Shown here: positions 9,237 through 59,846 of the stretch, piece after piece | Position numbering within the stretch: the first letter of the stretch is position 1 | How the letters are laid out: every line of letters starts with the position of its first letter | DNA from: a virus | Taxonomy: Duplodnaviria; Caudoviricetes | Direction: 5' to 3' (one strand) | IMG/VR virus record: IMGVR_UViG_3300011113_000415 | DNA length: 64,000 nucleotides | Notes under the pieces: generated by a model | The model's input: only the letters and a program-made list of their open reading frames with translations | Database searches by the model: none | What the model was told of the DNA's origin: nothing | Position numbers and translations under genes: made by a program

Positions 9237-9254
9237 TTGGCTGTAAATACAGCC

Positions 9255-9668: not shown

Positions 9669-9683
9669 TGCATTGGAGCAATC

Positions 9684-9947
9684 ATGGCCGACACCACCGA
9701 TATCGAAAAGAAAAGTCTAGAAGCACATGTGGAACTGTGTGCTGAACGTTATCGCGCCTTGGAGGCCCGAATAGATGACGTCAAACAGGACACAGCAGAA
9801 CTCAAAACAAGTATCCATGATGTGCATCGAGCAGTGGTACAAATGTCAAACAATCGTAACGCACAATTGATTGGTTGGGGCATAGGACTTATTGGATTTT
9901 TAACAGCCGCCCTGGGCTACATGGTCAGTCACTTTGTTCTAAAATGA
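9684..9947 (+). CDS. coiled-coil protein with C-terminal transmembrane helix
   Basis: heptad-like N-half; hydrophobic LIGWGIGLIGFLTAALGYMV tail; GGAG RBS; TAAATA at 9662. Confidence 0.6.
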   Translation: MADTTDIEKKSLEAHVELCAERYRALEARIDDVKQDTAELKTSIHDVHRAVVQMSNNRNAQLIGWGIGLIGFLTAALGYMVSHFVLK

Positions 9948-10435
9948 AACCCAGTCAAAAACTTGCGGCACTTGCCGAGCAAGAATTACCCAAATTATTG
10001 AATCATGTGATTGTGGCCGATGGTGACAAATATAGGGTGTTTGGATCATATGTATTACGTCAAACACCACGCGGTTACACAGTGACCTATCAAGATCAGC
10101 CAGTGGGCACATTTACCAGCACCAGAAGTGCCATGGCTTGGTGTGTAGCCGATCGAAATCGTCAGTACAATCTAGCACAAGAAATACAACACCTAGATTT
10201 TGCCCTGCTGAGACTACGCAATGATATAGAAATTCGTGGTCAACAGGCTCAAAAAGCCAGCGGAACATTTTGGGAAACAGTCACAGCCAAAACCCAACAC
10301 AAACAAGCACACAGTCAGCACCTACAAAATGAATTGACAAAATGCGTAAATCGGGCTAAATACCTACAACTTCGAGGAAGCAACAATGAAACTGCAAGAA
10401 CTGGCCGTAACACGCCCCACAAAACAAGTCGCTAA
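9944..10435 (+). CDS. hypothetical phage protein
   Basis: ATGA overlap with previous stop supports start 9944 (MKPSQKL). Confidence 0.65.
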   Translation: MKPSQKLAALAEQELPKLLNHVIVADGDKYRVFGSYVLRQTPRGYTVTYQDQPVGTFTSTRSAMAWCVADRNRQYNLAQEIQHLDFALLRLRNDIEIRGQQAQKASGTFWETVTAKTQHKQAHSQHLQNELTKCVNRAKYLQLRGSNNETARTGRNTPHKTSR

Positions 10436-11273
10436 AGTATTTGAAAGTCATTTTGACCAACGTGTGTCTTTTGACTCCATGAATCCCCGCCAAGTGCGTC
10501 ACATGCTACAACGTGTGCGTGGCCTAGTCAATGAGCATAGATCCAGTGCCGACTTCCACCACAGCGAAAAAAATCCTGCCTATCTCAAACTGATCATGAT
10601 GGAGCAGGCATTAGCACAGCAGTTGCGTGAGTATGGTGCTTCAGCCGCCGATGCAGATCCTGCCAAAACTGCTGCCTTGGCCACTGCTCAACAGCAACAG
10701 AAAAAGAAACAAATTCAAGACGAAATCAAACAAAAGCAAAAAGAAATACAAGACTTGCAAAAAGCCATGATGAATCCTACCTTGGGTATGACTGAAAACA
10801 ACACTGGCAACTTCTTGAAAGAATCAGAAATACAACAAGCACAAGTGGTATTGGCCGCTCAAGACATGGTAGACCGTGTGCAGAAAATGTTAGAAGACAC
10901 AACAGAAATGCAATTCAAAGAATTGCCTGCCTTGATTGATTCAATCAAGAATGAAGTTGGTGCTGATCAAGCCGCACAGTTCAATGCCGACGCTGCCGCT
11001 GCCTTGTCAGGCTTGGTGCAAAACTTACAGGCCAGCAAAGGTCAACTGGAGGCCGCACTGGGTGTGGTAACAGGTCAAGGTGGTGCTCCTGTGGTTCCTG
11101 GTGCCGAAGCCGGAGCCGACATTGGTGCCGAAATGGGTGCTGACCTAGGTGCAGACCTAGGAGCCGACATGGGTGCTGGTGCAGAACTTGATGCCGCGGC
11201 TGCCGCCGCCGGTGCCGAACCAGAACCCGAGCCTGCCACACCAGCAGCCAGTTTGGGTCGCGGACGTAGATAA
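10386..11273 (+). CDS. putative head/core (scaffold-like) protein
   Basis: helical Gln-rich body, Ala/Gly/acidic tail ending LGRGRR; in a late operon. Confidence 0.45.
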   Translation: MKLQELAVTRPTKQVAKVFESHFDQRVSFDSMNPRQVRHMLQRVRGLVNEHRSSADFHHSEKNPAYLKLIMMEQALAQQLREYGASAADADPAKTAALATAQQQQKKKQIQDEIKQKQKEIQDLQKAMMNPTLGMTENNTGNFLKESEIQQAQVVLAAQDMVDRVQKMLEDTTEMQFKELPALIDSIKNEVGADQAAQFNADAAAALSGLVQNLQASKGQLEAALGVVTGQGGAPVVPGAEAGADIGAEMGADLGADLGADMGAGAELDAAAAAAGAEPEPEPATPAASLGRGRR

Positions 11274-11611
11274 TGCGCATTGACGAAGTTGGTCATGGTC
11301 ACGATCATGGCACAGCCGCAAAACTCCTGGCCTTGGCCGAATTCTTGTTGGGACGGGCCCGAGACACAGGTGGTCAAAAACAAATCAGCATGCAGAGTTT
11401 TTTAAACCTGGCCAAAGGCATGCAGATTGATCTCACGCCAGACACACTGCAAACCTTGGCCGGTCAACCTCCACTAGATGGTGTGTTTCTGCCTATTGAA
11501 CCCAATTCGGGTGTGATCAAATTCAAAGGCAACAGTTCAGAGCCGGTGGCCATGCCGGTAAACAAAGCACAAGACATTGTGGCTGCCGCGGCCAAACGGG
11601 CAATGAAATAA
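11273..11611 (+). CDS. hypothetical phage protein
   Basis: TAATG coupling to previous ORF; MRIDEV start. Confidence 0.6.
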   Translation: MRIDEVGHGHDHGTAAKLLALAEFLLGRARDTGGQKQISMQSFLNLAKGMQIDLTPDTLQTLAGQPPLDGVFLPIEPNSGVIKFKGNSSEPVAMPVNKAQDIVAAAAKRAMK

Positions 11612-11631
11612 CCAAATCAGTCAACCAAAGA

Positions 11632-11660
11632 TTGACACAAAACGTTAAATATAGTATACT
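11632..11660 (+). promoter_or_regulatory. composite early/late promoter
   Basis: TTGACA-N17-TATACT with TAAATA inside the spacer. Confidence 0.65.
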
Positions 11661-11678
11661 GTCTACAAGGAGAGTACT

Positions 11679-11987
11679 ATGAAAAGACTCATCGCTCTAG
11701 TTCTAATGGCATTCAGTGTGTCAGCAATGGCACAATATCCACATCACAATCATCGCTATGGTGGTTACAACAGTTGGGGCTGGGTGGCGCCTGCTGTGAT
11801 CAGTGGTGCTGTGGTTTATGCCGCAACACGCCCTCAGGTGGTGGTTCAACAACCTCCTGTGATAGTACAACAGCCTCCTGTGGTGATGCAACAGCCCACA
11901 GACATTGTGTATCTTGATGGCATTGCTTATCGCCGACAGTTGATGTTGGTGAATGGTGCCTATCAAGAAGTTTTGATAAGAATGTAA
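11679..11987 (+). CDS. exported Pro/Gln-rich protein
   Basis: signal peptide MKRLIALVLMAFSVSAMA; repeated VVQQPPV. Confidence 0.65.
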   Translation: MKRLIALVLMAFSVSAMAQYPHHNHRYGGYNSWGWVAPAVISGAVVYAATRPQVVVQQPPVIVQQPPVVMQQPTDIVYLDGIAYRRQLMLVNGAYQEVLIRM

Positions 11988-11988
11988 T

Positions 11989-12375
11989 ATGGCCTACTCA
12001 GACAAAGTTATAGATCATTATGAAAATCCCCGAAATGTGGGCAGTTTTGCTACTACTGACGATACCGTTGGCACTGGAATGGTCGGGGCACCTGCTTGCG
12101 GGGATGTGATGCGATTGCAGATCAAAGTTGAAGATGGGATCATAACAGATGCAAGATTCAAAACATACGGTTGTGGGTCGGCCATTGCCAGCAGTAGCCT
12201 CGTTACAGAATGGGTCAAAGGTCGAACTCTTGAGGAAGCAGGATCCATACGCAATAGCGAGATTGCTGAAGAACTTGCTCTCCCCCCAGTCAAAATCCAC
12301 TGCTCCATCCTGGCCGAGGATGCCATAAAAGCCGCTGTAGCAGATTATCGCAAGAAGCATGATCTCGCTCACTGA
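11989..12375 (+). CDS. iscU: Fe-S cluster scaffold IscU
   Basis: YSDKVIDHYENPRNVG, GAPACGD, FKTYGCGSAIASSS, LPPVKIHCS. Confidence 0.97.
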   Translation: MAYSDKVIDHYENPRNVGSFATTDDTVGTGMVGAPACGDVMRLQIKVEDGIITDARFKTYGCGSAIASSSLVTEWVKGRTLEEAGSIRNSEIAEELALPPVKIHCSILAEDAIKAAVADYRKKHDLAH

Positions 12376-12682
12376 CACAGCAAGAAACAAAATACAACGA
12401 TTAGTCACAGCCAAAGGCTACGCTGGCATCCGCCTTGGCGTCAAAACTACTGGTTGCTCTGGGCTTGCTTATGTGTTAGAATATGTTAAAGAATACACTG
12501 ACGAACCCTACACAATAAATTACGCACAACCAGGCTTTGTAGTGTTAGTGAACCAAAAAGATGATGTATATCTACGTGGAATGACCGTAGACTATGTGCG
12601 TCAAGGCCTTAACGAGGGATTTGAATTCTCAAATCCCAATGAACGTGACCGTTGCGGTTGCGGAGAAAGTTTTCGAGTGTAA
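12359..12682 (+). CDS. iscA: A-type Fe-S carrier IscA
   Basis: GVKTTGCSGLAY and C-terminal FSNPNERDRCGCGESF. Confidence 0.95.
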   Translation: MISLTDTARNKIQRLVTAKGYAGIRLGVKTTGCSGLAYVLEYVKEYTDEPYTINYAQPGFVVLVNQKDDVYLRGMTVDYVRQGLNEGFEFSNPNERDRCGCGESFRV

Positions 12683-14343
12683 TGAAAATAAAATTTTGTT
12701 CCTTGGGTCCTGGACCAAAAACACGTTCTAAAGATAACTTTGCCTCGGTAGCAATTAACCCATCATTTTTTTTCTTTAAAAAGTACTACGAACTGCATGG
12801 TCTAAATCCCAAGGTTGATTGGTTATATCCTGAATTGGTAAAACTTGAACCGGCCCAAGATATTATCCAAAGAATTATTAATGAAAAACCAAATCTGTTG
12901 GGGTTGGGAGTTTATGTTTGGAACAATGATCTACAGTTTTTGATTGCTCAATCAGTGAAAAAACACTTGCCCAACACAATTATAGTGCTAGGGGGTCCTG
13001 ATTTGTCTGTGCATAAAGAGTTAGAACAGGACAATGATTTTTTCAATCAGCATCCATATGTGGACTATGTGGTATATGGTGATGGCGAAAAAGCATTTCA
13101 ACAGATCATTGATTATCATTCAGGCTACATGCCCGATAAACAGACGTTGATAAACACTATTGAAAATTTCAATGGCCACAAAATAGTCTATCCTTATGAA
13201 ATACTCGACGACAAATTGTATTTGAGTCAAAGTCCATTTGTAAGCAATGAGTCATTGATAACGCAAATTAGAGATGATCTAGTCCAGCAAGGCATATCCC
13301 GACGGGAACAAAAATGGTCGATTGAATTTGCTCGTGGTTGCATGTACAGTTGTAGTTTTTGTGATTGGTCTCAAAATCTTACCAAGAAAGTCAAACGAAG
13401 AAGTCATGACTGGAAAGAAGACATTGATTTATTCTGGCGATTAGATGTTCCTGTAAGAGAAACTGATGCCAATTTTGGACAATGGCCGGATGACATTAAG
13501 GCCTACGATTATGCCTGTTCACTGTATGATCCCAAACGGAATTTTTCTTTTGTTGTGGGTAACACTCCAAAACTCAAAAAGCACATTACAGAATATATAA
13601 TATACAAAAATTGCATGGTATATCATAATACAGGACACAGGCCAGCAATAAGTTTTCAGGATACCAATGATGACGTATTATCAGCCGTTGATCGTCCTAG
13701 TGTTTCCTGGGCTGAGATTGTCAAAATGATCAATAATCTCAAAGCAAAATTGAGCCCCGAAGTTTTTGGGTCAATAGAAGCAGAGATGATTCTGGGATTG
13801 CCGGAACAGACCATTGACAAAATAATTCACTCCTGCGTGACATTGTTTGACCTGGGTATCACAAAATATAGATATGATAACTGGTATATGTTGAGCAATA
13901 GTCCAGGTGCTGATCCTACCTATCAAAAAATGTGGGGATTGCAAATACACAATGTATATCAACTGCAAACACCCAAAGCATCAATACTAGACTTAGAATC
14001 GACTTATCAAAATCTAGCACTCAACCAAAGACAGGATAACACCCAGTTGTATGACATGTTTCACAAGGTATCTTTTGTTACAGGTCATAAAAAAATGTCA
14101 CTTATTGAACTTTTAACTGCAAAAATTATGCTGAGAAAATGGAACGAACTCAACCAAATTAAAAATACAGTAGAAAAATACGATTCAACACAGATTAAAA
14201 AAATCTTCAGACGATTGTTGATAGAGGCCATGATAGAATCCAAAAAACAATACAAAATTCATCAACAATATATTGACAAGTACAATATTATAGTTTGGGG
14301 ACACTACGACATCAATCAGAAAATACTTTATGAAGATTTTTGA
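12682..14343 (+). CDS. cobalamin-binding radical SAM protein
   Basis: B12-binding-like region (LGVYVWN, IVLGGP, VYGDGE) and RGCMYSCSFCDW; start moved to ATG 12682. Confidence 0.8.
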   Translation: MKIKFCSLGPGPKTRSKDNFASVAINPSFFFFKKYYELHGLNPKVDWLYPELVKLEPAQDIIQRIINEKPNLLGLGVYVWNNDLQFLIAQSVKKHLPNTIIVLGGPDLSVHKELEQDNDFFNQHPYVDYVVYGDGEKAFQQIIDYHSGYMPDKQTLINTIENFNGHKIVYPYEILDDKLYLSQSPFVSNESLITQIRDDLVQQGISRREQKWSIEFARGCMYSCSFCDWSQNLTKKVKRRSHDWKEDIDLFWRLDVPVRETDANFGQWPDDIKAYDYACSLYDPKRNFSFVVGNTPKLKKHITEYIIYKNCMVYHNTGHRPAISFQDTNDDVLSAVDRPSVSWAEIVKMINNLKAKLSPEVFGSIEAEMILGLPEQTIDKIIHSCVTLFDLGITKYRYDNWYMLSNSPGADPTYQKMWGLQIHNVYQLQTPKASILDLESTYQNLALNQRQDNTQLYDMFHKVSFVTGHKKMSLIELLTAKIMLRKWNELNQIKNTVEKYDSTQIKKIFRRLLIEAMIESKKQYKIHQQYIDKYNIIVWGHYDINQKILYEDF

Positions 14344-18607: not shown

Positions 18608-19816
18608 ATGAAAAAACGAAATTACACACAAGACACTGTTTGCAAACTACAAGGTAGCGTACAGATTGAACACACACTAGCCAAGCGTGGCGCATATAAA
18701 TTGCGTGAACTATTAGCCAACGAACCATACATCAATACACTGGGTGCATACAATGGACAAATGGCTGTACAACACGCCAAGGCAGGATTGAAAGCAATTT
18801 ATTTGTCAGGCTGGCAAGTGGCCGCAGCCAACAACACAGCCAATCAAACTTATCCTGACCAAAGTCTATATCCAGTGGATTCAGTGCCCAAGGTTGTTCG
18901 AGGCATCAATAATGCTTTCCGCCGTGCTGATCAAATTGAATACCTAGAAGGCAAGGTAACAACTGATTACTTTTTGCCTATTGTAGCAGATGCGGAAGCC
19001 GGCTTTGGTGGTGCATTGAACAGTTATGAACTAATGATGGCAATGATCGAAGCCGGAGCCGCCGGTGTACACTTTGAAGACCAATTGAGTTCAGAAAAGA
19101 AATGTGGCCACTTGGGTGGCAAGGTATTAATCCCTACAGGGCAAATGATCCGCACACTCAATGCCGCACGTTTGGCTGCAGATGTTGCAGGAGTAGATAC
19201 AGTTATTATGGCACGTACAGACGCAGAGAGTGCTACACTTATTACTAGCGACCATGATCCATTAGACCGGGAATTTATTATTGATGAACGCACCGAAGAA
19301 GGATTCTACAAATTTAAAAACGGCATTGATGCTTGCATTAGCCGAGGTCTTGCTTATGCCCCTTACGCTGATCTCTTATGGTTTGAAACTTCAACACCTG
19401 ATATTGCACAGGCTAAAAAATTCGCTGATGCTATACACGCACAGTACCCTGATCAAATGCTGGCTTATAATTGCAGTCCTAGTTTTAATTGGCGTAAGTT
19501 TTTAAGCGAAGACGAGTGCGAAACATTCCAACGCGAACTAGGCGAACTAGGATTCAAGTTTCAATTTATCACATTGGCTGGTTTCCACTCAGTGAACCTT
19601 GCCACATTTGAACTTGCTGAAGCATATAAGGCTCGTGGCATGGCGGGTTACGCTGAAATGCAACAACGTGAGTTTGCGGCACAGGCTCGTGGCTTTACTA
19701 CTGTGAAACATCAACGCGAAGTCGGCGTTGGATACTTTGACTTGATCAGCGAAGCAGTGGGTGCTACATCAACAGTGGCCAACAAATCATCAACTGAAGC
19801 GGATCAATTCCATTGA
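18608..19816 (+). CDS. aceA: isocitrate lyase
   Basis: catalytic [49 protein letters not shown]. Confidence 0.97.
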
Positions 19817-20019: not shown

Positions 20020-21159
20020 ATGAATTCAAAAACTTTTTGTTTGGCTCCTTGGGTCAATACCTGTGTTCTGCCTTCGGGACATTTGACGCCGTGTTGTGTT
20101 TGGCAAGAAACGTCAGATGCAACTTTTAAAGATTTTGATACTTGGCATAATTCGGACTATTTGAAAAACATTAGAAAGCGCATGTATCAAGGCGAAAAAA
20201 TTTCAGCCTGTGCCACATGTTGGCATGATGAAAGTATTGGAAAAGAAAGTCTAAGACAAATTTATAACCAAGAATGGTCAAAATTCTCTGTGAGAGATAT
20301 TATCAATAAAAATTGGCATGCTTCACACGGCGTTTGTGCGTTGGATTTAAAATTAGGAAATTTGTGCAATTTAAAATGTGTCATGTGTTCTCCTTCATCA
20401 AGTAGCCAATTGCTTTCTGAATACAAAACAAATACTACAAAATTTAACAATTTGAAATATTATGCTGTCAACTTTTTGGAAAAAGATTTTTCGTGGCCAT
20501 TGACTGATGATTTCAAAGATTTTTTAAAAAAATTCCAAAATCAATTACGGTGGATTAAATTCACTGGAGGTGAACCTACAATTATACCACATGTATTAGA
20601 TGTATTGGACAACTTGAATTGCGATAAAGTCACAGTGACCTTGGCAACCAATGGTACCAGACTTGATCAGCAATTTGTAGACAAGATTAAAAAATTTCAA
20701 ACAGTTTGGCTGACTGTGAGTCTTGAAGGTATACAAGAACATAATGATCAAATTAGATTTTTATCCCAATGGGAAGAGATTGAAAAAAACATTTTATCTG
20801 TTTATAATTTGCCAAACATCTATTTTAGCATTAATCATGTTTTGCAATGTTTTAGTGTGAATACCTTTATACCTTTGTTACAATGGTGTGAAAAATATCA
20901 AATTAAATTAGATGTAAATGTATTATCAAAACCTGAGTATCTAAGCATAAATGCAGTAGGTGTAAATATCATTGAGAAGTTTATAAATCAATTAAAGCAA
21001 ACGCATGTGACAACTAACCACCAGGTTATTCCGCATGTGCTTGGACATTTGAGTAATTATTCATACCGTCCTGATCTTGAAAAACAGCGACACGAATATT
21101 TGCAATTGTTAGATTCAATTAGGCATACAAATACAGATAATATTATTGAGGGTAAATAG
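20020..21159 (+). CDS. radical SAM protein with N-terminal SPASM/Twitch-like region
   Basis: FCLAPW, CATCW, CNLKCVMC, FTGGEP, ATNGT; AT-rich. Confidence 0.85.
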   Translation: MNSKTFCLAPWVNTCVLPSGHLTPCCVWQETSDATFKDFDTWHNSDYLKNIRKRMYQGEKISACATCWHDESIGKESLRQIYNQEWSKFSVRDIINKNWHASHGVCALDLKLGNLCNLKCVMCSPSSSSQLLSEYKTNTTKFNNLKYYAVNFLEKDFSWPLTDDFKDFLKKFQNQLRWIKFTGGEPTIIPHVLDVLDNLNCDKVTVTLATNGTRLDQQFVDKIKKFQTVWLTVSLEGIQEHNDQIRFLSQWEEIEKNILSVYNLPNIYFSINHVLQCFSVNTFIPLLQWCEKYQIKLDVNVLSKPEYLSINAVGVNIIEKFINQLKQTHVTTNHQVIPHVLGHLSNYSYRPDLEKQRHEYLQLLDSIRHTNTDNIIEGK

Positions 21160-41087: not shown

Positions 41088-42326
41088 ATGGAAAAAATTG
41101 GATTTATTGGGATTGGCAAATTGGGTCTCGATTGTGCCGAAGTCATGGCAGAAAAGCATGAAGTCAGAGGCTACGATATTTACCCACGAGTCAGTGACTC
41201 AGTAAAAGTTTGTGACATTGACGAATTGGTCAACGAAAGCGAATGGATTTTTATCGCTGTACCAACGCCACATGCAGAAGGCTATGATGGATCGGTTCCA
41301 TCAAGTCACATGGAACCTAGAGACTTTGGACACGACGCTGTGATTGACGCCATCAACAAAGTGAATACACATGCTTGTTCACCCAAAAAGGTTGTGTTGA
41401 TTTCCACAGTTCTGCCAGGAACCACACGCCGCAAGTTTTTTCCACTATTAGATCCTCAACATCAATTTTTGTACAATCCTTATCTTATTGCCATGGGATC
41501 GGTCAAATGGGACATGGTCAATCCCGAAATGATCATGATTGGCACAGAAGACGGTGCCTGGAACGGCGTGGCTGGCGAACTTAAAGATTTGTATGACACA
41601 GTGATGCAAAACAATCCACGTTATGAAATTGGCACCTGGGACGAGTGCGAATCAGTAAAGATATTCTATAACACATTTATTTCGGCCAAAGTTGGCCTGG
41701 TAAACATGATTCAAGACTTTGCATTACGTATTGGTAATATTGATGTTGATGTGGTCACAAATGCACTGGCACGAAGCACCATGCGTATCATGGGCCCCAA
41801 GTACATGACAGCCGGCATGGGCGATGCAGGTGCTTGTCATCCTAGAGACAACATTGCCTTGCGCTGGTTGGCAGAAGAATATGACATTGGTTATGATTTG
41901 TTTGACACCATCATGTATGCTAGAGAAATACAAGCAAAGAATCTTGCTCACTTTTTGGTTGATCAAGCCAAAGAACGCGGCATGAGTATTGTGATTCACG
42001 GCAAAGCCTACAAGCCCGATGTACCTTATTGTATTGGATCTTATTCTACCTTGGTTGGACACTATGTTAAAGAAGCAGGGTTTGGTGTGCGATATCTCGA
42101 TCCATTAGCAGATGATCCTACAGAAGTTATTTCTGAATTGGTTGGACCAGTTGTTATACTGTGGGCACACAATCGTAAAATCACGTATGAATACACCGGT
42201 GATCAACCTGATACACTGCCTTATTGTGCTATTCCTCAAGGTTGTGTGATTGTTGATCCATGGCGTAAACTTCCCCAGATTGAAGGACTGACTGTGGTCC
42301 ACTATGGCAACACCCGTAAAAAATAA
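41088..42326 (+). CDS. ugd: UDP-glucose/GDP-mannose dehydrogenase family protein
   Basis: Rossmann GIGKLG, AVPTP, ESVKIFYN, catalytic GACHPRD, AYKPD. Confidence 0.9.
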   Translation: MEKIGFIGIGKLGLDCAEVMAEKHEVRGYDIYPRVSDSVKVCDIDELVNESEWIFIAVPTPHAEGYDGSVPSSHMEPRDFGHDAVIDAINKVNTHACSPKKVVLISTVLPGTTRRKFFPLLDPQHQFLYNPYLIAMGSVKWDMVNPEMIMIGTEDGAWNGVAGELKDLYDTVMQNNPRYEIGTWDECESVKIFYNTFISAKVGLVNMIQDFALRIGNIDVDVVTNALARSTMRIMGPKYMTAGMGDAGACHPRDNIALRWLAEEYDIGYDLFDTIMYAREIQAKNLAHFLVDQAKERGMSIVIHGKAYKPDVPYCIGSYSTLVGHYVKEAGFGVRYLDPLADDPTEVISELVGPVVILWAHNRKITYEYTGDQPDTLPYCAIPQGCVIVDPWRKLPQIEGLTVVHYGNTRKK

Positions 42327-42825
42327 TACCTGGGCCCGCGGGCATGTGGCACCTTGGTGGGGGTTACGTCATCGCGAGTTGGCCTATTTCAACGAAGCAT
42401 TTAATGATCCTGTGAGTCTCAGTGAATGGCGCAGTCTAGGTTATACGCAAAAGAAATTCACAGGGGATATGTACGACATGCGCATGCCCGAGCCCGAATG
42501 GATGCGACAGTTCTCAGATATTTTTCCATTTCAACATCTCAGTTGGAGCGTGTATCGCATGACACCAGGTTGTGTGTTGCCCACGCACAGCGACACTTAC
42601 ACTAGGTTCAAAGAAATATATGCTGTGCCACCTTCAGTCACAGTGGTGCGTACTATTGTGTATCTTGAAGACTGGGCAAGCGGTCACTACGGGGAAATGG
42701 CTGGAGAGCCCATCACAGGATGGCGTGCTGGGGATTGGGTAAGTTGGCATGATGACTTTCCGCACTTGGCAGCCAACATGGGCCGAACAGATCGTTATAC
42801 ATTGCAATTAACAGGAATATTATGA
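42304..42825 (+). CDS. 2OG-Fe(II) oxygenase/cupin-like protein
   Basis: HxD (PTHSD), distal His (PHLAAN) and RYTLQ. Confidence 0.6.
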   Translation: MATPVKNNTWARGHVAPWWGLRHRELAYFNEAFNDPVSLSEWRSLGYTQKKFTGDMYDMRMPEPEWMRQFSDIFPFQHLSWSVYRMTPGCVLPTHSDTYTRFKEIYAVPPSVTVVRTIVYLEDWASGHYGEMAGEPITGWRAGDWVSWHDDFPHLAANMGRTDRYTLQLTGIL

Positions 42826-43733
42826 TATCAAGTGTCAACGAATGGAGTCCATTAAAAAAGATTGTAGTAGGCTCAGCCACTGATGCCAACTGGCCTGTTA
42901 ACGATCCTGTGTTCGCCAAAGAAAGTGAAAAAACAACCTGGAAAGAATCGCCTGTGCCACGTGGACCAGTTCCACAGCGTATAATTGAAGAAACCAATGA
43001 AGATCTAGATGTATTAACCACGACCTTGATGAGTCTAGGCGTCGAAGTTGTACGCCCAGATCCACTCAATTTTCAAGTTCACGATGGCATGTACAATTAT
43101 TGCCCACGTGACAGGCTGCTGGTGTATGGATCCACAGTGATCGATACCGCCATGATGTATCCTTGTAGAGACATGGAATTGCAATGTTATCATGACTTGA
43201 TACAAAATGCTGACGTTGTCCGCATGCCACGTGATCAAGGCATGGTGTTGGATGCAGCCAATGTATGCAGATTGGGCGATCGCATGTTGTTCTTGGAATC
43301 AGCGTCAGGAAATCGTAAAGCATACCAATGGTTGTGTGATAAGTTTCCTGATGTAAGCATAGAACTCTGCAATTTCTATGCTGGGGTGCATATTGATTCA
43401 ACCATTGTTCCGTTACGTGAAGGCCTGGTCATGCTGAATTCTAGCCGTGTGACGTTTGACAATGTACCACATGTGTTTGATGGTTGGCACAAGATCTGGG
43501 TCAACGACGTGGTAGCACAGGACTTCTATAAATATCCTTATGCATCAAAATGGATAGCCATGAACATGTTGGTAGTTGACCCCCACACTGTTATTTGTGA
43601 TCGGAACCAAACTGAATTGATTAAAACTTTACGGAGTTATCGATTTGAAGTCATTCCTCTTGAATTACGTCACAGTCGCACACTAGGCGGCGGATTTCAT
43701 TGTGTTACATTAGACCTGCATCGTGAGTCATGA
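42822..43733 (+). CDS. amidinotransferase (StrB1/AGAT-like)
   Basis: NEWSPLKKIVVG, CPRD, LDAAN, HID, GGGFHCVT. Confidence 0.88.
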   Translation: MISSVNEWSPLKKIVVGSATDANWPVNDPVFAKESEKTTWKESPVPRGPVPQRIIEETNEDLDVLTTTLMSLGVEVVRPDPLNFQVHDGMYNYCPRDRLLVYGSTVIDTAMMYPCRDMELQCYHDLIQNADVVRMPRDQGMVLDAANVCRLGDRMLFLESASGNRKAYQWLCDKFPDVSIELCNFYAGVHIDSTIVPLREGLVMLNSSRVTFDNVPHVFDGWHKIWVNDVVAQDFYKYPYASKWIAMNMLVVDPHTVICDRNQTELIKTLRSYRFEVIPLELRHSRTLGGGFHCVTLDLHRES

Positions 43734-44284
43734 ACATCGCATGGTTGTTTGCTGAAAACACCCTGCTACCTCCTGCCACAGACGTACAGGCCATAAAGAA
43801 TGTGGCACCCATATGGGGATCCTGGCGCACACAACGTGGCTATCAGACAGACAATGTGATCTGCTGGGACTCCGAACAAGCCACCCAGTTGGTGTCACAA
43901 GGTTACGGTGCTATCTGCAATCTGTTCATACACCAGACGGTTTATGATAAATTAGGCAAACCGAACAATGTACGTGTGTTTGGTGGAGAATTTGTGCATG
44001 AGGTAGATTCTCACGATGATGTTGTGGGCATGCACTTGGTGGCCAGCGCCGCAGATGTCATACTCATGGTGGGATTCGACTTTACCGAACCAAAGAATCT
44101 CACAGAATCCCGAACCAATTATCTGGGTCTGGCAGCACAAGTGGTACAAGATCACCCGCGACAGCAGTGGGTCATGATTGATCATCCAACCGAATTAGCC
44201 AAACCGTTCGTAGGGCTGGAAAATATCACTTGCGATTCAATGAAAAATGTGTTACAATTACTGATGTTAAACACAACCGAATAA
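43730..44284 (+). CDS. hypothetical protein
   Basis: ATGA-coupled; contains VGFDF. Confidence 0.55.
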   Translation: MNIAWLFAENTLLPPATDVQAIKNVAPIWGSWRTQRGYQTDNVICWDSEQATQLVSQGYGAICNLFIHQTVYDKLGKPNNVRVFGGEFVHEVDSHDDVVGMHLVASAADVILMVGFDFTEPKNLTESRTNYLGLAAQVVQDHPRQQWVMIDHPTELAKPFVGLENITCDSMKNVLQLLMLNTTE

Positions 44285-44287
44285 TGT

Positions 44288-45316
44288 ATGACTGCTAGAA
44301 TTGGTTTTTGTTGTAAATGGCTCAATGATCCTTCAGAATGCGGGGGCATGAAAGTCAATGCAAAAGATCGTGATCTCAACGGCAGATCAACTACCATGCG
44401 TTGGCTTCGTGAGCACCCTGAAGATGCTGATCAGCGCCAATGGGATATTATGAACCACAATGCCTCAGCCGCGGTGCGATTGATTGAGCGTGTGGCTACC
44501 TTGCCCGAGGGTCGTAGAATGGTACGACTTGGTAGTGAGATGCTACAAGGCTACACTGAACCCAATTGGATTGACTGGTGGCAACGCACAGAAATACAAG
44601 ATCATTGTGCAAAAATTTTTGCACCTGTTGGCGAGGCCGCTAGACGGCTGGGTGTGCGACTGAGTTTTCATCCTGGACAGTTTTGTGTACTGGCCTCAGA
44701 ATCGGACGAAATCGTAGAACGATCAATCTTGGAATTTGAATATCATGTGGACATGGCTCGTTGGATGGGCTATGGTAAGACCTGGCATGATTCGGGATTC
44801 AAGATCAATGTGCATTTATCGGGCAAAGGTGGTCCCGCTAAATTCTTGCAGACACTAGGGCGACTCACGCCTGAAGCAAGAAACTTGATAACCATCGAGA
44901 ATGACGAGATGACAAATGGATTGGACACTACTTTGGCTGTGGCTCAGCATGTGGCTCTTGTGTTGGATTTGCATCATCATTTTATCATGACTGGGGAATA
45001 TATTTCGTCAGATGATGATCGAATTTCTTATATTGTTGACTCTTGGCGCGGTGTCCGTCCTGCACTTCATTACTCACTGAGCCGAGAAGATGAGTTGATT
45101 GACCATGATTCTAAAATTCGACCGAATCTTTCTGAACTTCTGGCCATTGGTCATAAGAAGCAAAAACTTCGAGCACATTCAGACTTTATGTGGAACAATG
45201 CATGCAACGAATGGGCCCTTACTCATTTAGATTGGGCAGATATCCAAGTTGAAGCAAAAGGAAAAAATCTAGCGAGTCAACAATTATTTGAGTTCTGGAA
45301 AGGCCTTGAAAAATAA
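44288..45316 (+). CDS. uvsE: UV-damage endonuclease
   Basis: RLSFHPGQF, INVH, TIENDE, LDLHHH, HYS, RAHSD, VEAKGK. Confidence 0.92.
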   Translation: MTARIGFCCKWLNDPSECGGMKVNAKDRDLNGRSTTMRWLREHPEDADQRQWDIMNHNASAAVRLIERVATLPEGRRMVRLGSEMLQGYTEPNWIDWWQRTEIQDHCAKIFAPVGEAARRLGVRLSFHPGQFCVLASESDEIVERSILEFEYHVDMARWMGYGKTWHDSGFKINVHLSGKGGPAKFLQTLGRLTPEARNLITIENDEMTNGLDTTLAVAQHVALVLDLHHHFIMTGEYISSDDDRISYIVDSWRGVRPALHYSLSREDELIDHDSKIRPNLSELLAIGHKKQKLRAHSDFMWNNACNEWALTHLDWADIQVEAKGKNLASQQLFEFWKGLEK

Positions 45317-45464: not shown

Positions 45465-45761
45465 ATGCGTGAATTTGCGCTGGCGTTCCTATTTTGCTTG
45501 ATCAGCACCATAGCCAACGCTCAAATCAACCTAGACAAACCAGTATACTGTGATTCTGCCACAACAATATTGCAGATAATAAAAGACCGATACCGAGAAA
45601 CACCAGTCTGGATAGGCAGTCAAAGCAGTGGTATCATAATGTTGACCTTGAACGAAACCACACAGTCCTGGACCTTGCTGGAACTCTATGATGAATTGGC
45701 CTGCATACTTGGCACAGGAAAAGCATTCAACACTATGCAAAAAACACGCCCTGTTCTGTAA
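45465..45761 (+). CDS. exported hypothetical protein
   Basis: signal peptide; TAAATA and AAGGAG upstream. Confidence 0.6.
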   Translation: MREFALAFLFCLISTIANAQINLDKPVYCDSATTILQIIKDRYRETPVWIGSQSSGIIMLTLNETTQSWTLLELYDELACILGTGKAFNTMQKTRPVL

Positions 45762-45790
45762 CAAAATTGTAACACACTTTGGCCTAAATA
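45756..45790 (+). promoter_or_regulatory. Pho-box-like repeat plus TAAATA upstream of pstS
   Basis: CTGTAAC-AAAA-TTGTAAC (11-bp period), 11 nt, TAAATA. Confidence 0.7.
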
Positions 45791-45812
45791 ATTGTCTAAC
45801 AAGGAGATTCTA

Positions 45813-46814
45813 GTGAAACAATTATTTGCAATCGTATTAGCGGCATTGACATTATCAGCGTCAGCACAGATCACAGGTGCTGGTGCAACATTTCCATACC
45901 CCATCTACTCAAAGTGGGCAGAACTTTATAACCGGGAAACTGGCGTAACACTCAACTATCAATCCATTGGATCCAGTGGCGGCATTCGTCAAATTGATGC
46001 TAAAACAGTCACCTTTGGTGCCAGTGATGCACCTGTTGCCGGAGACAAGTTGGCCGCAAACGGTCAAGTACAATTTCCAGCAATCATTGGTGGTACAGTT
46101 GCTATTGTTAATTTGGATGGTTTCAAACCAGGCGAACTACGTATCACAGGGCCTGTATTAGCAGAAGTATTTTTAGGCGAAATCTCTAAATGGAATGACC
46201 CAAAGTTAACAGCACTTAACCCGGGTAAAAAATTACCTGACTTGGAAATTACTATTGTGCATCGTGCAGACGGGTCTGGAACAACATTCAACTGGACAGA
46301 TTATTTAACAGCAGTAAGTACCAAGTGGGCTGAGAAGGTAGGTAAAGGTGCCGCAGTCAAATGGCCAGCAGCCTCATCAGTGGGTGGCAAAGGCAACGAA
46401 GGCGTGGCCGCCAACGTACAACGTGTTAAAGGCTCAATCGGCTATGTTGAATATGCTTATGTTAAAAAGAACAACTTGACTTTCTTGCAATTGCAAAATA
46501 AGTCAGGCAAGTATGTTAGTCCAGATGACCTAACATTTGCTGCCGCGGCAGCAGGTGCTGATTGGTTCTCAGTCCCTGGTATGGGCGTGAGTATTGTGGA
46601 TCAAAAGGGCGATACTGTATGGCCCATAAGCACAGCCAGTTTCATCATCATGTACCGAGATCCCGCAGACAAAAAAGCCAGCCAGGACGCACTAAAATTC
46701 TTTGACTGGGCATTCAAGAATGGTAAGAAAGCCGCAGAGGAATTGGATTATGTAGCATTACCTGATAGCCTGACCCGACAAATTCGCGAGCGGGTTTGGA
46801 GTCAGATTAAATAA
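45813..46814 (+). CDS. pstS: phosphate ABC transporter substrate-binding protein
   Basis: GAGATFPYP, YQSIGSSGG, FGASDAP, HRADGSGTT, GKGNEGV; AAGGAG RBS and GTG start. Confidence 0.96.
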   Translation: MKQLFAIVLAALTLSASAQITGAGATFPYPIYSKWAELYNRETGVTLNYQSIGSSGGIRQIDAKTVTFGASDAPVAGDKLAANGQVQFPAIIGGTVAIVNLDGFKPGELRITGPVLAEVFLGEISKWNDPKLTALNPGKKLPDLEITIVHRADGSGTTFNWTDYLTAVSTKWAEKVGKGAAVKWPAASSVGGKGNEGVAANVQRVKGSIGYVEYAYVKKNNLTFLQLQNKSGKYVSPDDLTFAAAAAGADWFSVPGMGVSIVDQKGDTVWPISTASFIIMYRDPADKKASQDALKFFDWAFKNGKKAAEELDYVALPDSLTRQIRERVWSQIK

Positions 46815-46817
46815 ACA

Positions 46818-46860
46818 AACCGAGTGCAACGATAGAGTACTGCTGGAACTCGTAACCAGC
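46818..46860 (+). ncRNA. candidate small structured RNA
   Basis: lies between TAAATA (46808) and a terminator; pairings GCTGG/CCAGC, CGAGT/ACTCG, AGTGC/GTACT. Confidence 0.4.
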
Positions 46861-46892
46861 AAATACCCCATTTTTTTTGGGGTATTTTTTTT
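46861..46892 (+). terminator. rho-independent terminator
   Basis: AAATACCCCA-loop-TGGGGTATTT plus T run. Confidence 0.85.
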
Positions 46893-46917
46893 GTACGTAA
46901 CGATTATAAATATCTGT

Positions 46918-47082
46918 ATGAGTTGGTTCAAAAGAATACCGCACAGATATCCACCCACAACTGCCGCACCCACACCCTATAGGTCCAGCCCTGCTACAGA
47001 TCTAGCACTGGAACAAGCCAAAGCGACCCGCCCAAAATCTCGTAAAAAATCAGTCAAAAAACACCCACTAAATAAGGGATGA
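46918..47082 (+). CDS. small basic Pro-rich protein
   Basis: ATG 5 nt after TATAAATA (46905-46912). Confidence 0.5.
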   Translation: MSWFKRIPHRYPPTTAAPTPYRSSPATDLALEQAKATRPKSRKKSVKKHPLNKG

Positions 47083-47723
47083 AACCCACTATAGCACTGT
47101 TCCTACATCATCCTAGGACTTCGGTGCAGAGTGGAAACGCTGTAATGCAAGCCTTGCGTGAGCATTATCATTTCAAAATATTCACACGCCACGAACTCGA
47201 ATCCGAGTTCTTCAATGATGTAGACTGTGTGGCCTTTCCAGGCGGCATAGGCGATTCAGATTCCTATGACTGGTTGTTCAGAGTCAACGGCCCTGTGATA
47301 CGTAACTACATGGCTCGGGGTGGTAGATATCTTGGCATCTGTATGGGTGCTTACTGGGCAGACGCAGACTACTTTGACATACTAGATGGAGTGCGGGCAG
47401 AACAGTATATTCGAAGACCCGGCACAGACACACGTCGTCCACATGCCAAAGCAGCCAGCATAACTTGGCAAGGCAACCCTGAGCGCATGTATTTTTATGA
47501 TGGCTGTGCCTTGGTGGGTGACGAATCTAGATTTGAAACTGTGGCCAGATATGCCAATGGTGATGCCATGGCCATCATACAAAATCGTGTGGGCCTGATT
47601 GGTTGCCATCCTGAAAGTGTTGAGTTTTGGTACGACAAGAGATATTTAAAACAACATTGGCATCATGGTCGCCATCATCAATTGTTACTAAATTTTGTAA
47701 ATCGATTATTTGTAACAAAATAG
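47079..47723 (+). CDS. class I glutamine amidotransferase-like (BPL_N-type) protein
   Basis: FPGG, YLGICMGAY nucleophile elbow, GCHPE. Confidence 0.75.
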   Translation: MKPTIALFLHHPRTSVQSGNAVMQALREHYHFKIFTRHELESEFFNDVDCVAFPGGIGDSDSYDWLFRVNGPVIRNYMARGGRYLGICMGAYWADADYFDILDGVRAEQYIRRPGTDTRRPHAKAASITWQGNPERMYFYDGCALVGDESRFETVARYANGDAMAIIQNRVGLIGCHPESVEFWYDKRYLKQHWHHGRHHQLLLNFVNRLFVTK

Positions 47724-47744
47724 TCACATGATTTTGCCTAAATA
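47710..47744 (+). promoter_or_regulatory. Pho-box-like repeat plus TAAATA upstream of the plcP-like gene
   Basis: TTGTAAC-AAAA-TAGTCAC, 11 nt, TAAATA; same geometry as the pstS site. Confidence 0.62.
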
Positions 47745-47748
47745 CAGC

Positions 47749-48534
47749 ATGCTGAAAACGTATCGCAGTATTTTTATCAGTGACGTACATCTAGGCACAA
47801 GAGATTGCAAGGCAGAAGAACTCAACAACTTTCTAAAACACAACTCATGCGATACCTTGTATCTTGTGGGTGACATTATAGATGCCTGGAAAATTCAACA
47901 AAACAAATGGCGATGGAAACAAACCCACACCAATGTTGTCCGTCGTGTGCTAGGTCATGCCAAGCGCGGTACTCGTGTGGTATTCATAGCAGGCAATCAC
48001 GACGAGTTTTTAAGACCAATGATACCATATGGATTCAGTTTTGGCTTGATAGAAATTGTCAATCAAACTGAACACATAGGTGTAGATGGTCGGCACTATC
48101 TTGTGGTGCATGGTGACCTGTTTGATGGTATCACAAGACTAGCACCGTGGATTTCATTCTTAGGAGATCGAGCATATGACTTTATTCTTGCGCTTAATAG
48201 CCGATTCAATTGGCTACTGCATCGTTTTGGTATTGGGTACTTTAGTCTTAGCCAGTACCTTAAAAAGCGAGTGAAAAAAGCAGTAGACTTTATTTTTCAC
48301 TTTGAAAAAAATCTAGCCAGTTACTGTCGAAAGCGTGGCTACGATGGTGTTATATGTGGACACATACACCACGCAGAAATAAAAGAAATAGATGGCGTGG
48401 TCTACATGAATGACGGAGACTGGGTAGAGTCATGCACTGCCCTGGTAGAACATCACGATGGACGATGGGAGATTGTAACATGGACACGAAGAAATGACAA
48501 AGAAGATATTAATGGTCACGGACAATGTTCCTGA
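47749..48534 (+). CDS. PlcP-like phospholipase C (LpxH-family metallophosphoesterase)
   Basis: IFISDVHLG, LVGDIIDAW, GNHDEFLR, HGDLFD, ICGHIH, NDGDWVESCTALVE; adjacent GT4 gene. Confidence 0.75.
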   Translation: MLKTYRSIFISDVHLGTRDCKAEELNNFLKHNSCDTLYLVGDIIDAWKIQQNKWRWKQTHTNVVRRVLGHAKRGTRVVFIAGNHDEFLRPMIPYGFSFGLIEIVNQTEHIGVDGRHYLVVHGDLFDGITRLAPWISFLGDRAYDFILALNSRFNWLLHRFGIGYFSLSQYLKKRVKKAVDFIFHFEKNLASYCRKRGYDGVICGHIHHAEIKEIDGVVYMNDGDWVESCTALVEHHDGRWEIVTWTRRNDKEDINGHGQCS

Positions 48535-49501
48535 TCAAATAAATGGTGTCAACACAACTTATCAAAATATCGAGAAGTATGCAATTTTGGATGATTATAT
48601 TATCCATACTCTTCATCCCGGGTGCTTCCGCTACATTGATTGTCCTAAATATAACGAAGTCAAACTTGCCATTCCAAGCAAGATGGGACAGAAGATTGAG
48701 GAGATATCTCCGGATTATATACACATCCAAACAGAAGGTCCTCTTGGTCTGTGGGCTAGAAAGTATCTTTCAATATGTGGTTATAGGTACAACACCGCTT
48801 ATCATACTAAGTTTCCTGAAGGGCTAAAGAAACTGTTTGGTATTCCTGAATTGGTGACATGGCCTCTAGTGCGTTGGTTTCACAAACACTCAGGCAAAGT
48901 GTTGACCACAACTGATAGCATGGTAGCGGAATTGCGCTCACATGGATTCCGGGGCGAAATTGTGTCATGGACACGTGGAGTTGATCGTGAGATATTTCGA
49001 CCCGAACTCAGACAAAACTTTCCTGCCAAGTATTTACTGTGCGTAAGTCGTGTGAGCAAGGAAAAAAATCTAGAAGCATTCTTGGACCTGGACTATCCTG
49101 GCTATCAAAAAATCATGGTAGGTGATGGCCCCATGTTGGAAACATATCGCGAACAGTATCCCGATGTCACATTCTCCGGATTCAAAACAGGTACGGAACT
49201 TGCTAGATATTATGCCAATGCTGAAGTATTTGTATTTCCCAGTCAATGGGAAACATTTGGTATTGTCATGATCGAAGCCATGGCCTGCGGAACTCCAGTG
49301 GCTGCTTATCCCGTTCAAGGTCCGGAGGATGTTGTAGATGAAGGCGTGACAGGTTGTTTGAATTCCAATCTCAAGCAGGCAGTTACTGATTGTTTGTTTT
49401 TAAATAGACAACAGGTATGGTCTGGCAGCCAACGTTGGTCATGGCAACGTGCGTGGGAAATATTCAGAGACAACCTAGTTCCAGCAAAGCCACAAAAATA
49501 A
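48494..49501 (+). CDS. Agt-like GT4 glycosyltransferase (putative DAG glycosyltransferase)
   Basis: VTD..PDQINGV, HIQTEGPLG, YHTKFPE, RGVD, RVSKEKNL, ETFGIVMIEAMACGTPV. Confidence 0.75.
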   Translation: MTKKILMVTDNVPDQINGVNTTYQNIEKYAILDDYIIHTLHPGCFRYIDCPKYNEVKLAIPSKMGQKIEEISPDYIHIQTEGPLGLWARKYLSICGYRYNTAYHTKFPEGLKKLFGIPELVTWPLVRWFHKHSGKVLTTTDSMVAELRSHGFRGEIVSWTRGVDREIFRPELRQNFPAKYLLCVSRVSKEKNLEAFLDLDYPGYQKIMVGDGPMLETYREQYPDVTFSGFKTGTELARYYANAEVFVFPSQWETFGIVMIEAMACGTPVAAYPVQGPEDVVDEGVTGCLNSNLKQAVTDCLFLNRQQVWSGSQRWSWQRAWEIFRDNLVPAKPQK

Positions 49502-58001: not shown

Positions 58002-58585
58002 TGCCAATCGTGCTTGAACAAACAGCCAAAGGCGAACGCAGTTACGACATCTACAGTCGCTTGTTAAAAGACCGTGTGATCATGCTGGACACAGAAGTGT
58101 CAGAACACACAGCCAGTCTGTTGGTGGCACAGATGCTGTTTTTGGAAAGTGAAAACCCAGACAAAGACATAGCCTTGTATATCAATTCGCCAGGCGGAAG
58201 TGTAACAGCAGGCATGGCCATCTATGACACTATGCAGTTTATCAAATGTGATGTGCAAACCATTGTGATGGGTCAGGCCTGCTCCATGGGATCATTGTTG
58301 GCACAAGCAGGTGTCGCAGGCAAGCGCATGATCTTGCCCCATGCTAGACACATGATTCACCAACCTTCGGGTGGTGCTTCAGGCCAGGCCACAGACATTC
58401 AAATTCAAGCCCGTGAGATTCAAAAAATGAAACAGTATCTAACTGAAATCTATGTGCAACACAATACGGCCGGTAAAGACTTTGAAGTTTTAAGTGCAGA
58501 CATGGAACGTGATTTTTTCATGAGTGCTCAAGAAGCCGTGGACTATGGACTGGCGGACAGGATTATTGCAAAACGTGACCTCTAA
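57989..58585 (+). CDS. clpP: ATP-dependent Clp protease proteolytic subunit
   Basis: [44 protein letters not shown]. Confidence 0.96.
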
Positions 58586-59846
58586 CTTACAAAAATATTT
58601 TTGCCCAAGTCCTTGGTTTCACATGCGTATCTTTAATGATGGTGGTATGAATTACTGTCGTTGGGCTGTTAAAGATCAAATACAAACAAACATGCGAGAT
58701 GTTGATCCCAAAATTTTTTTCCAGCAACACATGGAGCACATTAGAACCAGTATGTTACAAGGACATGCTGTTTTGGGTTGCAAAAAATGCTATCAAATGG
58801 ATCAACATCACAAGATCAGTGGCAGACAAAAACAGTTATTGAAAATTGGTGTGCGCACGGAGCATTTTGAAAAATCATTGGCCAGCAGTCCTTGGGTCAA
58901 TACATTTCGATCAGAAAAATTTACACAACTACCGCAAGACTGGCAAATTGATTTGGGAAACTTTTGCAATAGTGCTTGTGTATTTTGCAATCCAAGTGCC
59001 AGTTCGAGACTGGCAAGCGAATGGAAGCAAATTGGTTTCATTGATAAATTGCCCAATGCCAATTGGACTGACGATCCAGAACTGGTGGACAGATTTTTGG
59101 TTATGCTTGAGGCAAGTGCTAACATTCAGTATCTACATTTTATTGGTGGGGAAACACTGATTACTCCTGCTTTTCATACCATTTTAAAAGCATTGATAAA
59201 ATCGGGTCTGAATCGTACTGCTACAATTGGATTCACTACAAATTTAATATCTTGGAATCAACAGGTAGTTGATTTACTGAAACAATTTGCAGGTGTAAAT
59301 CTTGGTATGAGCATTGAAACATTTGATAATATTAATGATTATGTGCGTTGGCCAGCCACAATGTCAAAAATTTATGAAATTCTGGAAAAATGGCTATCAA
59401 TTGCCAAGTCCCACAATTGGCTCATGCAGTTTCGTACCACTCCCACTGTATTGACTATACATAATTTGTTGAGCGTCTACAAATATGCTTGGGACAGGTC
59501 AATTGCTATTGAAAGTTGCGATTTTCTAAATGAACCTGCATTCATGCGCCCATCAGTTTTGCCCATGCTGTATCGAGAACCAATCATTAAATCAATGACT
59601 GCATGGATTGATAAACACAACGCCAGTGATCCACTTATTGTTAATACTCGTAATCCTGGTGTAGCACAACAACAAATAGTGCAAGATTTGCAAAGTTATG
59701 TTAACTATTTACAAACCCAACCAGATGAAAGTTGTAGATTACCAGATCTTGTTTCGTATCTAAAACGACTTGAAAGCAATCGTGGCAATAGCATTTTAAG
59801 TTATCTACCGCAATATGAAGAACTTTTCAGAACTGCTGGCTACTGA
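58524..59846 (+). CDS. radical SAM protein with N-terminal SPASM/Twitch-like region
   Basis: [27 protein letters not shown]; true start is likely slightly downstream. Confidence 0.85.

Follow-up and report, generated by a model that had tools for sequence, protein, structure and literature searches.

A phage-encoded candidate phosphate-starvation module combining pstS with a PlcP/Agt-like lipid-remodelling gene pair

The 64,000-nucleotide stretch of viral DNA analysed here (IMG/VR record IMGVR_UViG_3300011113_000415, hereafter the window) carries, between 45.7 and 49.5 kb, four genes in the same orientation. They include pstS, which encodes a periplasmic phosphate-binding protein, and an overlapping pair coding for a PlcP-type metallophosphoesterase, a predicted phospholipase C, and an Agt-like GT4, a predicted diacylglycerol glycosyltransferase. 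We consider it likely that these genes constitute a phage-borne phosphate-starvation module, proteobacterial in origin and under strong purifying selection, in freshwater phages with genomes of roughly 350 kb. At the level of families and orthologues, the identities of the genes, the pairing of the two enzymes, the conservation and specificity of the promoter motif, the phage origin of the DNA and the purifying selection are established.

Organization of the region

The two transcription units and their signals are arranged as follows.

45757..45790, + strand: Pho-box-like repeat TGTAACAAAATTGTAAC, 11-nt spacer and TAAATA, in the pstS promoter region (motif search)
45813..46814, + strand: pstS, periplasmic phosphate-binding protein (NCBIfam PstS equivalog)
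46861..46895, + strand: intrinsic terminator (46861-46887) ending the pstS unit, a 10-bp stem followed by a T run
47079..47723, + strand: GATase1/BPL_N-like protein of 214 aa (Pfam BPL_N, GATase)
47711..47744, + strand: Pho-box-like repeat TGTAACAAAATAGTCAC, 11-nt spacer and TAAATA, the plcP-agt promoter (motif search)
47749..48534, + strand: PlcP-type metallophosphoesterase, predicted phospholipase C (Pfam Metallophos, tree)
48494..49501, + strand: Agt-like GT4, predicted diacylglycerol glycosyltransferase (Pfam Glycos_transf_1, Glyco_transf_4)

The start of the GT4 gene overlaps the end of the phosphoesterase gene by 41 nt. A preliminary description of this DNA, made from its letters, had reported pstS and, downstream, a metallophosphoesterase overlapping a GT4; all these genes are present, with slightly corrected coordinates, and the phosphoesterase and GT4 motifs quoted there are found in the translations. 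Its identification of pstS is borne out by the NCBIfam PstS equivalog, which the protein passes. It had further read the phosphoesterase as PlcP rather than LpxH and the GT4 as Agt-like, and had assigned a Pho-box-like site to each unit, three proposals that agree with the results given below.

The phosphoesterase is of the PlcP type

Within the phosphoesterase open reading frame (ORF; 47728-48534), alignment with relatives places the start at ATG 47749 (MLKTYRS); the upstream ATG at 47728 is located inside the promoter and is not common to the relatives. The protein matches Pfam Metallophos with 45.8 bits and passes neither of the two NCBIfam LpxH equivalogs (50.8 bits for a cut-off of 134, and 38 bits for a cut-off of 190). 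Ectopseudomonas oleovorans and Acidovorax kalamii both possess a true LpxH (331 and 241 bits, respectively) together with a second paralogue of the window type (56.9 and 45.9 bits), and Caulobacter segnis has the window-type gene alone (49.6 bits), with no LpxH above the cut-off.

A maximum likelihood tree of 108 sequences (quick IQ-TREE) was built from phage copies, cellular homologues and three LpxH proteins. The LpxH of E. coli, Ectopseudomonas and Acidovorax are set on a long branch with 100% support, which separates them from the window protein. The copies from freshwater phages all group in a single clade (100% support) within the proteobacterial PlcP-type radiation, and the copy of Pelagibacter phage Mosig branches basally. 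The metal-binding residues D12, H14, D42, N83-H84-D85, H121, H205 and H207 are invariant in 28 phage and cellular sequences. Cellular homologues, 50-59% identical, belong to Hyphomonadaceae, Caulobacteraceae, Comamonadaceae and Pseudomonas; identity to the protein of the plcP-agt1-type operon of several Pseudomonas species is 55%, and characterised PlcPs are themselves about 46-47% identical to each other (PMC8528852). The dN/dS ratio (nonsynonymous to synonymous substitution rates) of the phosphoesterase is 0.04-0.07, with 0.05 for the closest pair and with synonymous sites saturated in most pairs.

LpxH shares the fold, a metallophosphoesterase core with a helical insertion, and is the nearest solved structure: a profile search of the PDB, which holds no PlcP structure, gave LpxH as the nearest entry (E = 1e-11). 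Similarly, an AlphaFold2 model of the window protein (pLDDT 83.6) comprises the phosphoesterase core and a helical insertion at about residues 122-196, and the 25 PDB entries that match it best are without exception structures of LpxH, which acts on lipids. The model thus fits an enzyme that would take a diacyl lipid at the cytoplasmic face of the membrane. LpxH differs from the window protein, however, in sequence (about 19-21% identity), in its motif GNRD, where the window protein has GNHD, and in its separate clade.

The GT4 corresponds to the agt-position gene

In three whole genomes, the best match of the window GT4 is the gene adjacent to plcP (219-243 bits, 40-41% identity over the full length), and the next-best GT4 in those genomes scores at most 86 bits. 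With 335 aa, the protein is close in length to GTcp of SAR11 (334 aa), whose activity is abolished by mutation of G16, G82, G85, R190, K195, T257, F258, G259 or E264 and whose His104 belongs to the catalytic dyad (PMC8231724). All these essential residues are kept in the window GT4, as G18, G82, G85, R186, K191, T254, F255, G256, E261 and H104. The published signature motifs (GRVAxEKN and FPSxTDTFG) are altered in the window GT4; the alphaproteobacterial copies match them and the Pseudomonas copies nearly do so. The dN/dS ratio of the GT4 is 0.07-0.17 (0.11 for the closest pair), again with synonymous sites saturated in most pairs.

The GT4 tree was computed with no outgroup and with the divergent GT4 of locus L121 left out. 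This locus and L129 come from metagenome-assembled genomes labelled Synechococcus sp. UW140; their plcP genes, and the agt of L129, cluster within Hydrogenophaga (Comamonadaceae), and the two contigs are probably mis-binned. Neither the phosphoesterase tree nor the GT4 tree puts the phage clade inside one host family, which could have pointed to a donor.

The pairing is conserved while the partner is exchanged

Among 80 cellular plcP loci, a GT4 gene is located directly 3' of the phosphoesterase in most cases, its product being 38-43% identical to the window GT4 over the full length. Other genes found 3' of cellular homologues code for BtaA/DUF3419 (betaine lipid synthesis; Hyphomicrobium), polyphosphate kinase or a patatin-like phospholipase. 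In marine bacteria, plcP has been described upstream of agt, of other glycosyltransferase genes including pgt, or of btaBA (PMC4796936), and the P. aeruginosa operon likewise consists of plcP followed by agt1 (PMC8528852).

A similar comparison was made for 80 related viral loci drawn from IMG/VR contigs with the phosphoesterase. In 76 of them the phosphoesterase is directly followed either by a GT4 of the window type or by an unrelated GT2 of 239 aa; of the four loci that depart from this pattern, three stop at no more than 220 nt from the phosphoesterase gene. Since the partner has been swapped for a non-homologous enzyme while the pairing was kept, a functional link between the two positions can be argued. 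The GT2 shows only a marginal match to Glyco_transf_21 (27 bits) and generic GT2 relatives, so that it could not be recognized as a processive Pgt/GT21, and no homologue of it was found in the 80 cellular plcP loci.

The window pair resembles the PlcP-Agt systems of bacteria (S. meliloti SMc00171; Phaeobacter MED193_17359; SAR11 HTCC7211 PB7211_983/960; P. aeruginosa PA3219/PA3218; A. tumefaciens Agt Atu2297) in its protein families, in gene order and in the Pho-box-like site upstream. Bacteria also use alternative glycosyltransferases (PMC4796936), as the phage lineage does with GT4 and GT2. The window pair differs from the bacterial systems in being located on a phage of about 350 kb, in the TAAATA placed 4 nt before the ATG and in the altered GT4 motifs. 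A partial counterpart exists in an isolated phage, Pelagibacter phage Mosig EXVC030M (MT647606), where pstS divergently adjoins a PlcP-type phosphoesterase (Mosig_00119/00120) that is annotated as putative UDP-2,3-diacylglucosamine hydrolase and is 47.5% identical to that of the window; the 12.7-kb Mosig locus yielded no homologue of the window GT4 or of the GT2. The phosphoesterase is likewise present in cyanophage S-SRM01 and in a faecal phage contig, with no homologue of the window GT4 or of the GT2 detected beside it.

Both units carry a specific Pho-box-like promoter

Two direct repeats with an 11-bp period precede the two units, each separated by 11 nt from a TAAATA hexamer: TGTAACAAAATTGTAAC at 45757-45773 with TAAATA at 45785-45790, and TGTAACAAAATAGTCAC at 47711-47727 with TAAATA at 47739-47744. 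The former is the sole exact TGTAAC-N5-TGTAAC in the window. Loose Pho-box patterns (TGTAAC-N5-TGTAAC with two mismatches; TGTMAY-N5-TGTMAY with one) are not enriched in the window over shuffled sequences, and a scan for the sigma-70 consensus gave nothing above the shuffled expectation. The composite of box, 6-18 nt and TAAATA, on the other hand, has just two occurrences in the 64 kb, one preceding pstS and the other the phosphoesterase.

The same composite is found in related phages. Related phage loci totalling 810 kb contain 48 copies of the repeat on the plus strand, that of the phosphoesterase, and 38 of these copies are accompanied by TAAATA. When both strands are considered, the genes just downstream of composite sites are those of the phosphoesterase (25), of PstS (7) and of an unknown acidic protein (3). 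This third gene, located at 7650-8175 in L031, 3315-4045 in L053 and 7729-8448 in L058, codes for a protein rich in Ala, Val and Glu (MRLEDLAARL...), of which the window has no homologue. The box and TAAATA are present 5' of pstS in seven of eight relatives, and the plcP promoter is kept in many relatives, where the spacer bases vary and the half-sites persist. Textbook TGTCAT/TGTCAC half-sites occupy the same place in L027, L032, L059 and L080. In hosts, the boxes upstream of pstS read TGTCAY-N5-TGTCAY, and one host genome carries, upstream of plcP, a run of four TGTCAT-like half-sites with an 11-bp period. Control by PhoB would be the best reading of these motifs.

The phosphoesterase ATG follows TAAATA by 4-6 nt with no Shine-Dalgarno sequence, in the window (4 nt) and in many relatives among L008-L087, which suggests that the plcP mRNA may be leaderless. 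In contrast, pstS has a 22-nt leader with AAGGAG.

The contig belongs to a lineage of large freshwater phages

The window encodes a primase, a DnaB-type helicase, both ribonucleotide reductase subunits and an ATP-dependent ligase, together with many ORFs devoid of any family, and nearly all ORFs lie on one strand. Phosphoesterase homologues at 81-93% identity are present on more than 590 IMG/VR contigs. The gene order of the window from the ugd-like gene (at 41088) to the GT4 is mostly matched by the related loci L008, L009 and L011-L013, and all five syntenic IMG/VR records checked contain a large terminase. According to CheckV, a relative of 359,563 bp is 100% complete and another of 349,369 bp is 97% complete. 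Metagenomes of nine studies, from viral fractions, lakes and rivers, contain the exact DNA of the window. On the basis of this synteny, the terminases, the completeness estimates and the metagenomic occurrence, the contig belongs to a lineage of freshwater phages of roughly 350 kb. A host origin of the contig, which had been raised in the preliminary description as a way in which its proposal could fail, is ruled out by the same facts: the syntenic relatives are of phage type, carry terminase and, where complete, reach 350-360 kb, and the DNA occurs in viral fractions. A blastn search of the region against 50,697 GenBank phage records returned no nucleotide match, and a tRNA search of the window found none.

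pstS is of Burkholderiales type and appears mobile

The pstS ORF was listed from TTG 45792; its likely start is GTG 45813, 6 nt after AAGGAG. The protein scores 403.9 bits with NF008171 (cut-off 339) and 366.3 bits with TIGR00975 (cut-off 205), and its Sec signal peptide ends with ASA, followed by QITGAGATFPYPIY. It is 79, 76 and 75% identical to the PstS of three genomes of Burkholderiales, the order to which Acidovorax kalamii belongs, and has no match at E = 1e-10 in the tested Pseudomonas, Caulobacter and Hyphomonas genomes. This similarity of PstS, the sole basis for a host assignment, indicates that the phage lineage probably infects Burkholderiales.

In the best-matching genome (2.05 Mb, Burkholderiales, local GC content 54%), plcP, agt and pstS adjoin one another on the same strand, and in a second small Burkholderiales genome no more than about 4 kb separates them. 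Through this clustering, the phage module mirrors a host Pho island. Such islands are situated at 7065-10842 in locus L174 (genome G028) and at 9183-14775 in L175 (G178). The identity to the host copies is unequal, being 79% for PstS, about 53% for the phosphoesterase and about 40% for the GT4. Furthermore, the position of pstS varies among relatives: in the nearest one, L008, it is absent from between uvdE and the GATase1-like ORF (4084-5346), and in the complete 359-kb relative (G206) it is located at 149692-150666, about 170 kb away from the phosphoesterase. Considering this unequal divergence and variable position, pstS has the appearance of a cassette that is mobile or of more recent date. 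Control of cyanophage pstS by the host Pho system is established. The pstS of cyanomyophages and pelagimyophages (PMC12379486) is likewise a host-like, phage-encoded periplasmic phosphate-binding protein gene behaving as a variable cassette, whereas the window gene is of Burkholderiales type and has a putative lipid-remodelling pair as its neighbour in the genome of a freshwater jumbo phage.

Proposed role of the module and alternative explanations

From the family assignments we infer the enzyme activities, the binding of PhoB, the participation of a headgroup phosphatase and a fitness benefit, according to the following scheme. In a phosphate-starved infected cell, host PhoB would bind both repeats at the -35 position and turn on the pstS and plcP-agt units. 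The exported phage PstS would boost the capture of phosphate for the host PstCAB transporter. Meanwhile, the cytoplasmic PlcP-type enzyme would split phospholipids of the inner membrane into diacylglycerol and a phospho-headgroup, from which a host phosphatase would presumably free the phosphate. The Agt-like GT4 would convert diacylglycerol into a glycolipid devoid of phosphorus, the likeliest product being a glucosyl lipid, so that the membrane could stay intact while lipid phosphorus goes to phage DNA synthesis.

Several points weigh against this scheme. The enzyme assignments are made by way of orthologous operons of Pseudomonas, Caulobacteraceae and Comamonadaceae rather than from the sequences of characterised PlcP and Agt. 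The window GT4 reads SRVSKEKN for GRVAxEKN and FPSQWETFG for FPSxTDTFG, with Glu at the dyad position where the SAR11/Agrobacterium Agt group has Asp; the plcP-adjacent orthologues of Comamonadaceae (GRVSYEKN, FPSRSETFG) show Glu and RVS as in the window and keep the leading Gly. Since the phage half-sites are mostly TGTAAY and those of the host TGTCAY, binding of PhoB is uncertain, and recognition by a phage factor is conceivable; TAAATA, moreover, fits poorly as a -10 element for sigma-70 and may belong to promoters specific to the phage. The region yielded no phosphatase that could act on the released headgroup. The nearest relative, L008, has no pstS at the position of the module, so that linkage of all three genes is not obligatory. 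Finally, one metatranscriptome contains contigs of relatives, 85-92% identical over all four genes; these RNA-library contigs are no proof of transcription and could result from DNA carry-over.

The deviations in the promoters lead to the idea that the repeats are operators of a phage regulator, or belong to a class of middle or late phage promoters, so that expression follows the infection programme. The TGTAAY half-sites and the coupling to TAAATA, which is nearer to a phage-type element than to TATAAT, speak for it. Nevertheless, the 11-bp period, the 11-nt distance to the -10-like element and the confinement to pstS and plcP are as in promoters that depend on PhoB, some relatives have the textbook half-sites described above, and no OmpR/PhoB-type regulator was found in two near-complete relatives, which makes this explanation rather doubtful. 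It is also conceivable, albeit unlikely, that envelope remodelling by the pair serves another end than phosphorus supply: an altered membrane lipid composition, acting through receptors or porins, could block superinfection, shift the timing of lysis or make the membrane of a cell infected for long more stable, with phosphate release as a side effect. Phage glycosyltransferases commonly modify surfaces. The alternation of GT4 and GT2 would be expected under diversifying pressure on the product, and linkage of pstS to the pair is inconsistent among relatives. In addition, lipid composition is reported to influence phage attachment and membrane protein content (PMC9938194, PMC9804370). Yet pstS and the pair share one promoter type that serves almost nothing else in the 810 kb, and the cellular orthologues reside in phosphate-starvation neighbourhoods (agt, btaA, ppk, pstS). 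Both enzymes, besides, have no signal peptide, and their predicted site is the cytoplasmic face of the inner membrane and not the surface.

The phosphoesterase could, in principle, be an LpxH-like enzyme of lipid A, with a glycosyltransferase that modifies lipopolysaccharide or another envelope glycan. JGI and GenBank name its homologues UDP-2,3-diacylglucosamine hydrolase, GenBank labels the Mosig and S-SRM01 copies LpxH, and LpxH provides the nearest NCBIfam model as well as the nearest structure. Against these names stand the scores far under both cut-offs, the coexistence with a true LpxH or, in one Caulobacter genome searched, the occurrence as sole type, the fully supported branch and the GNHD motif; the neighbouring genes are agt and btaA, not lpx genes. 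We therefore regard this assignment as very improbable.

The chances appear to us evenly balanced that freshwater Burkholderiales jumbo phages use the inner membrane as a phosphorus store under PhoB, PlcP and an interchangeable GT4 or GT2 swapping phospholipid for glycolipid while PstS raises uptake, and that a meaningful share of the genome phosphorus is obtained in this way. Phage phosphate-uptake genes (pstS, phoH, phoA) are textbook examples of viral auxiliary metabolism. The phospholipid phosphorus of a small cell is, by a rough estimate, of about the same order as its chromosomal phosphorus; if the proposal is true, lipid phosphorus would be a substantial supply for 350-kb genomes in phosphate-poor lakes. 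It would then represent a new class of viral auxiliary metabolism, a virus-driven renovation of membrane lipids, and a measurable signature would be expected in the lipid and phosphorus cycling of lakes. The phosphoesterase family, abundant as it is in IMG/VR, currently passes under the wrong label of LpxH, and the alternation of GT4 and GT2 offers a natural experiment on which glycolipid suffices. A full-text literature search, with most subscription journals outside its scope, turned up work on the bacterial PlcP-Agt pathway and on pstS of phages, but none on phage-encoded plcP or agt and no account of phage genes that release phosphorus from host membrane lipids.

Neighbouring genes and other features of the window

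The interval of 0.9 kb between pstS and the phosphoesterase contains the 214-aa GATase1/BPL_N-like ORF, which the preliminary description did not mention. This protein matches Pfam BPL_N (35.4 bits) and GATase (22 bits), has an apparent Cys-His-Glu triad (Cys in GICMG, His and Glu in CHPE), and the atlas clusters that it matches are viral BPL_N proteins. About 40 of the 80 related viral loci have its gene a few kb or less away from that of the phosphoesterase, and none of the 80 cellular loci has it near plcP. The GATase1-like protein may be a third component of the module. Directly 5' of pstS, an ORF of 98 aa (45465-45761, + strand) has a signal-peptide-like N-terminus and no family match, and its stop codon overlaps the Pho-like box.

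The gene at 41088 had been proposed as an ugd that could supply UDP-glucuronate, a proposal that found no support. Its best score with the UDP-glucose dehydrogenase equivalogs is 97.2 bits for a cut-off of 670, and it reaches 125.9 bits with an NDP-sugar dehydrogenase subfamily for a cut-off of 189.8, which is consistent with a divergent nucleotide-sugar dehydrogenase. The best cellular matches of the GT4 include genes in the Agt1 position of Pseudomonas, and Agt1 of P. aeruginosa produces the glucosyl lipid only (PMC8528852). Because the cut-offs are failed, the gene belongs to a separate operon and Agt1 makes a glucosyl lipid, the supply of UDP-glucuronate is speculation. The operon itself (41088-45316, + strand) consists of overlapping genes, the nucleotide-sugar dehydrogenase and three ORFs with no family above the curated cut-off, one of which has a weak dimethylargininase/amidinotransferase-like match; a gene for UvdE (UV endonuclease) follows 3 nt downstream. 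The order of this block, 5' of the module, is mostly conserved in L008, L009 and L011-L013.

Elsewhere, the window codes for an isocitrate lyase family protein (18608-19816, + strand; Pfam ICL, 339.6 bits), an unusual auxiliary metabolic gene for a phage, and for five radical SAM proteins, one of them with a B12-binding domain (3103-4308, 4276-5352 on the minus strand, 12652-14343, 20020-21159 and 58524-59846). In the 350-kb relatives L003 and L006 (around 7557-13737), the phosphoesterase-GT2 pair lies beside an eIF-1a-like gene and genes for an Fe/Mn superoxide dismutase, a LysM-GH19 lysin, NifU and two Fe-S assembly proteins.

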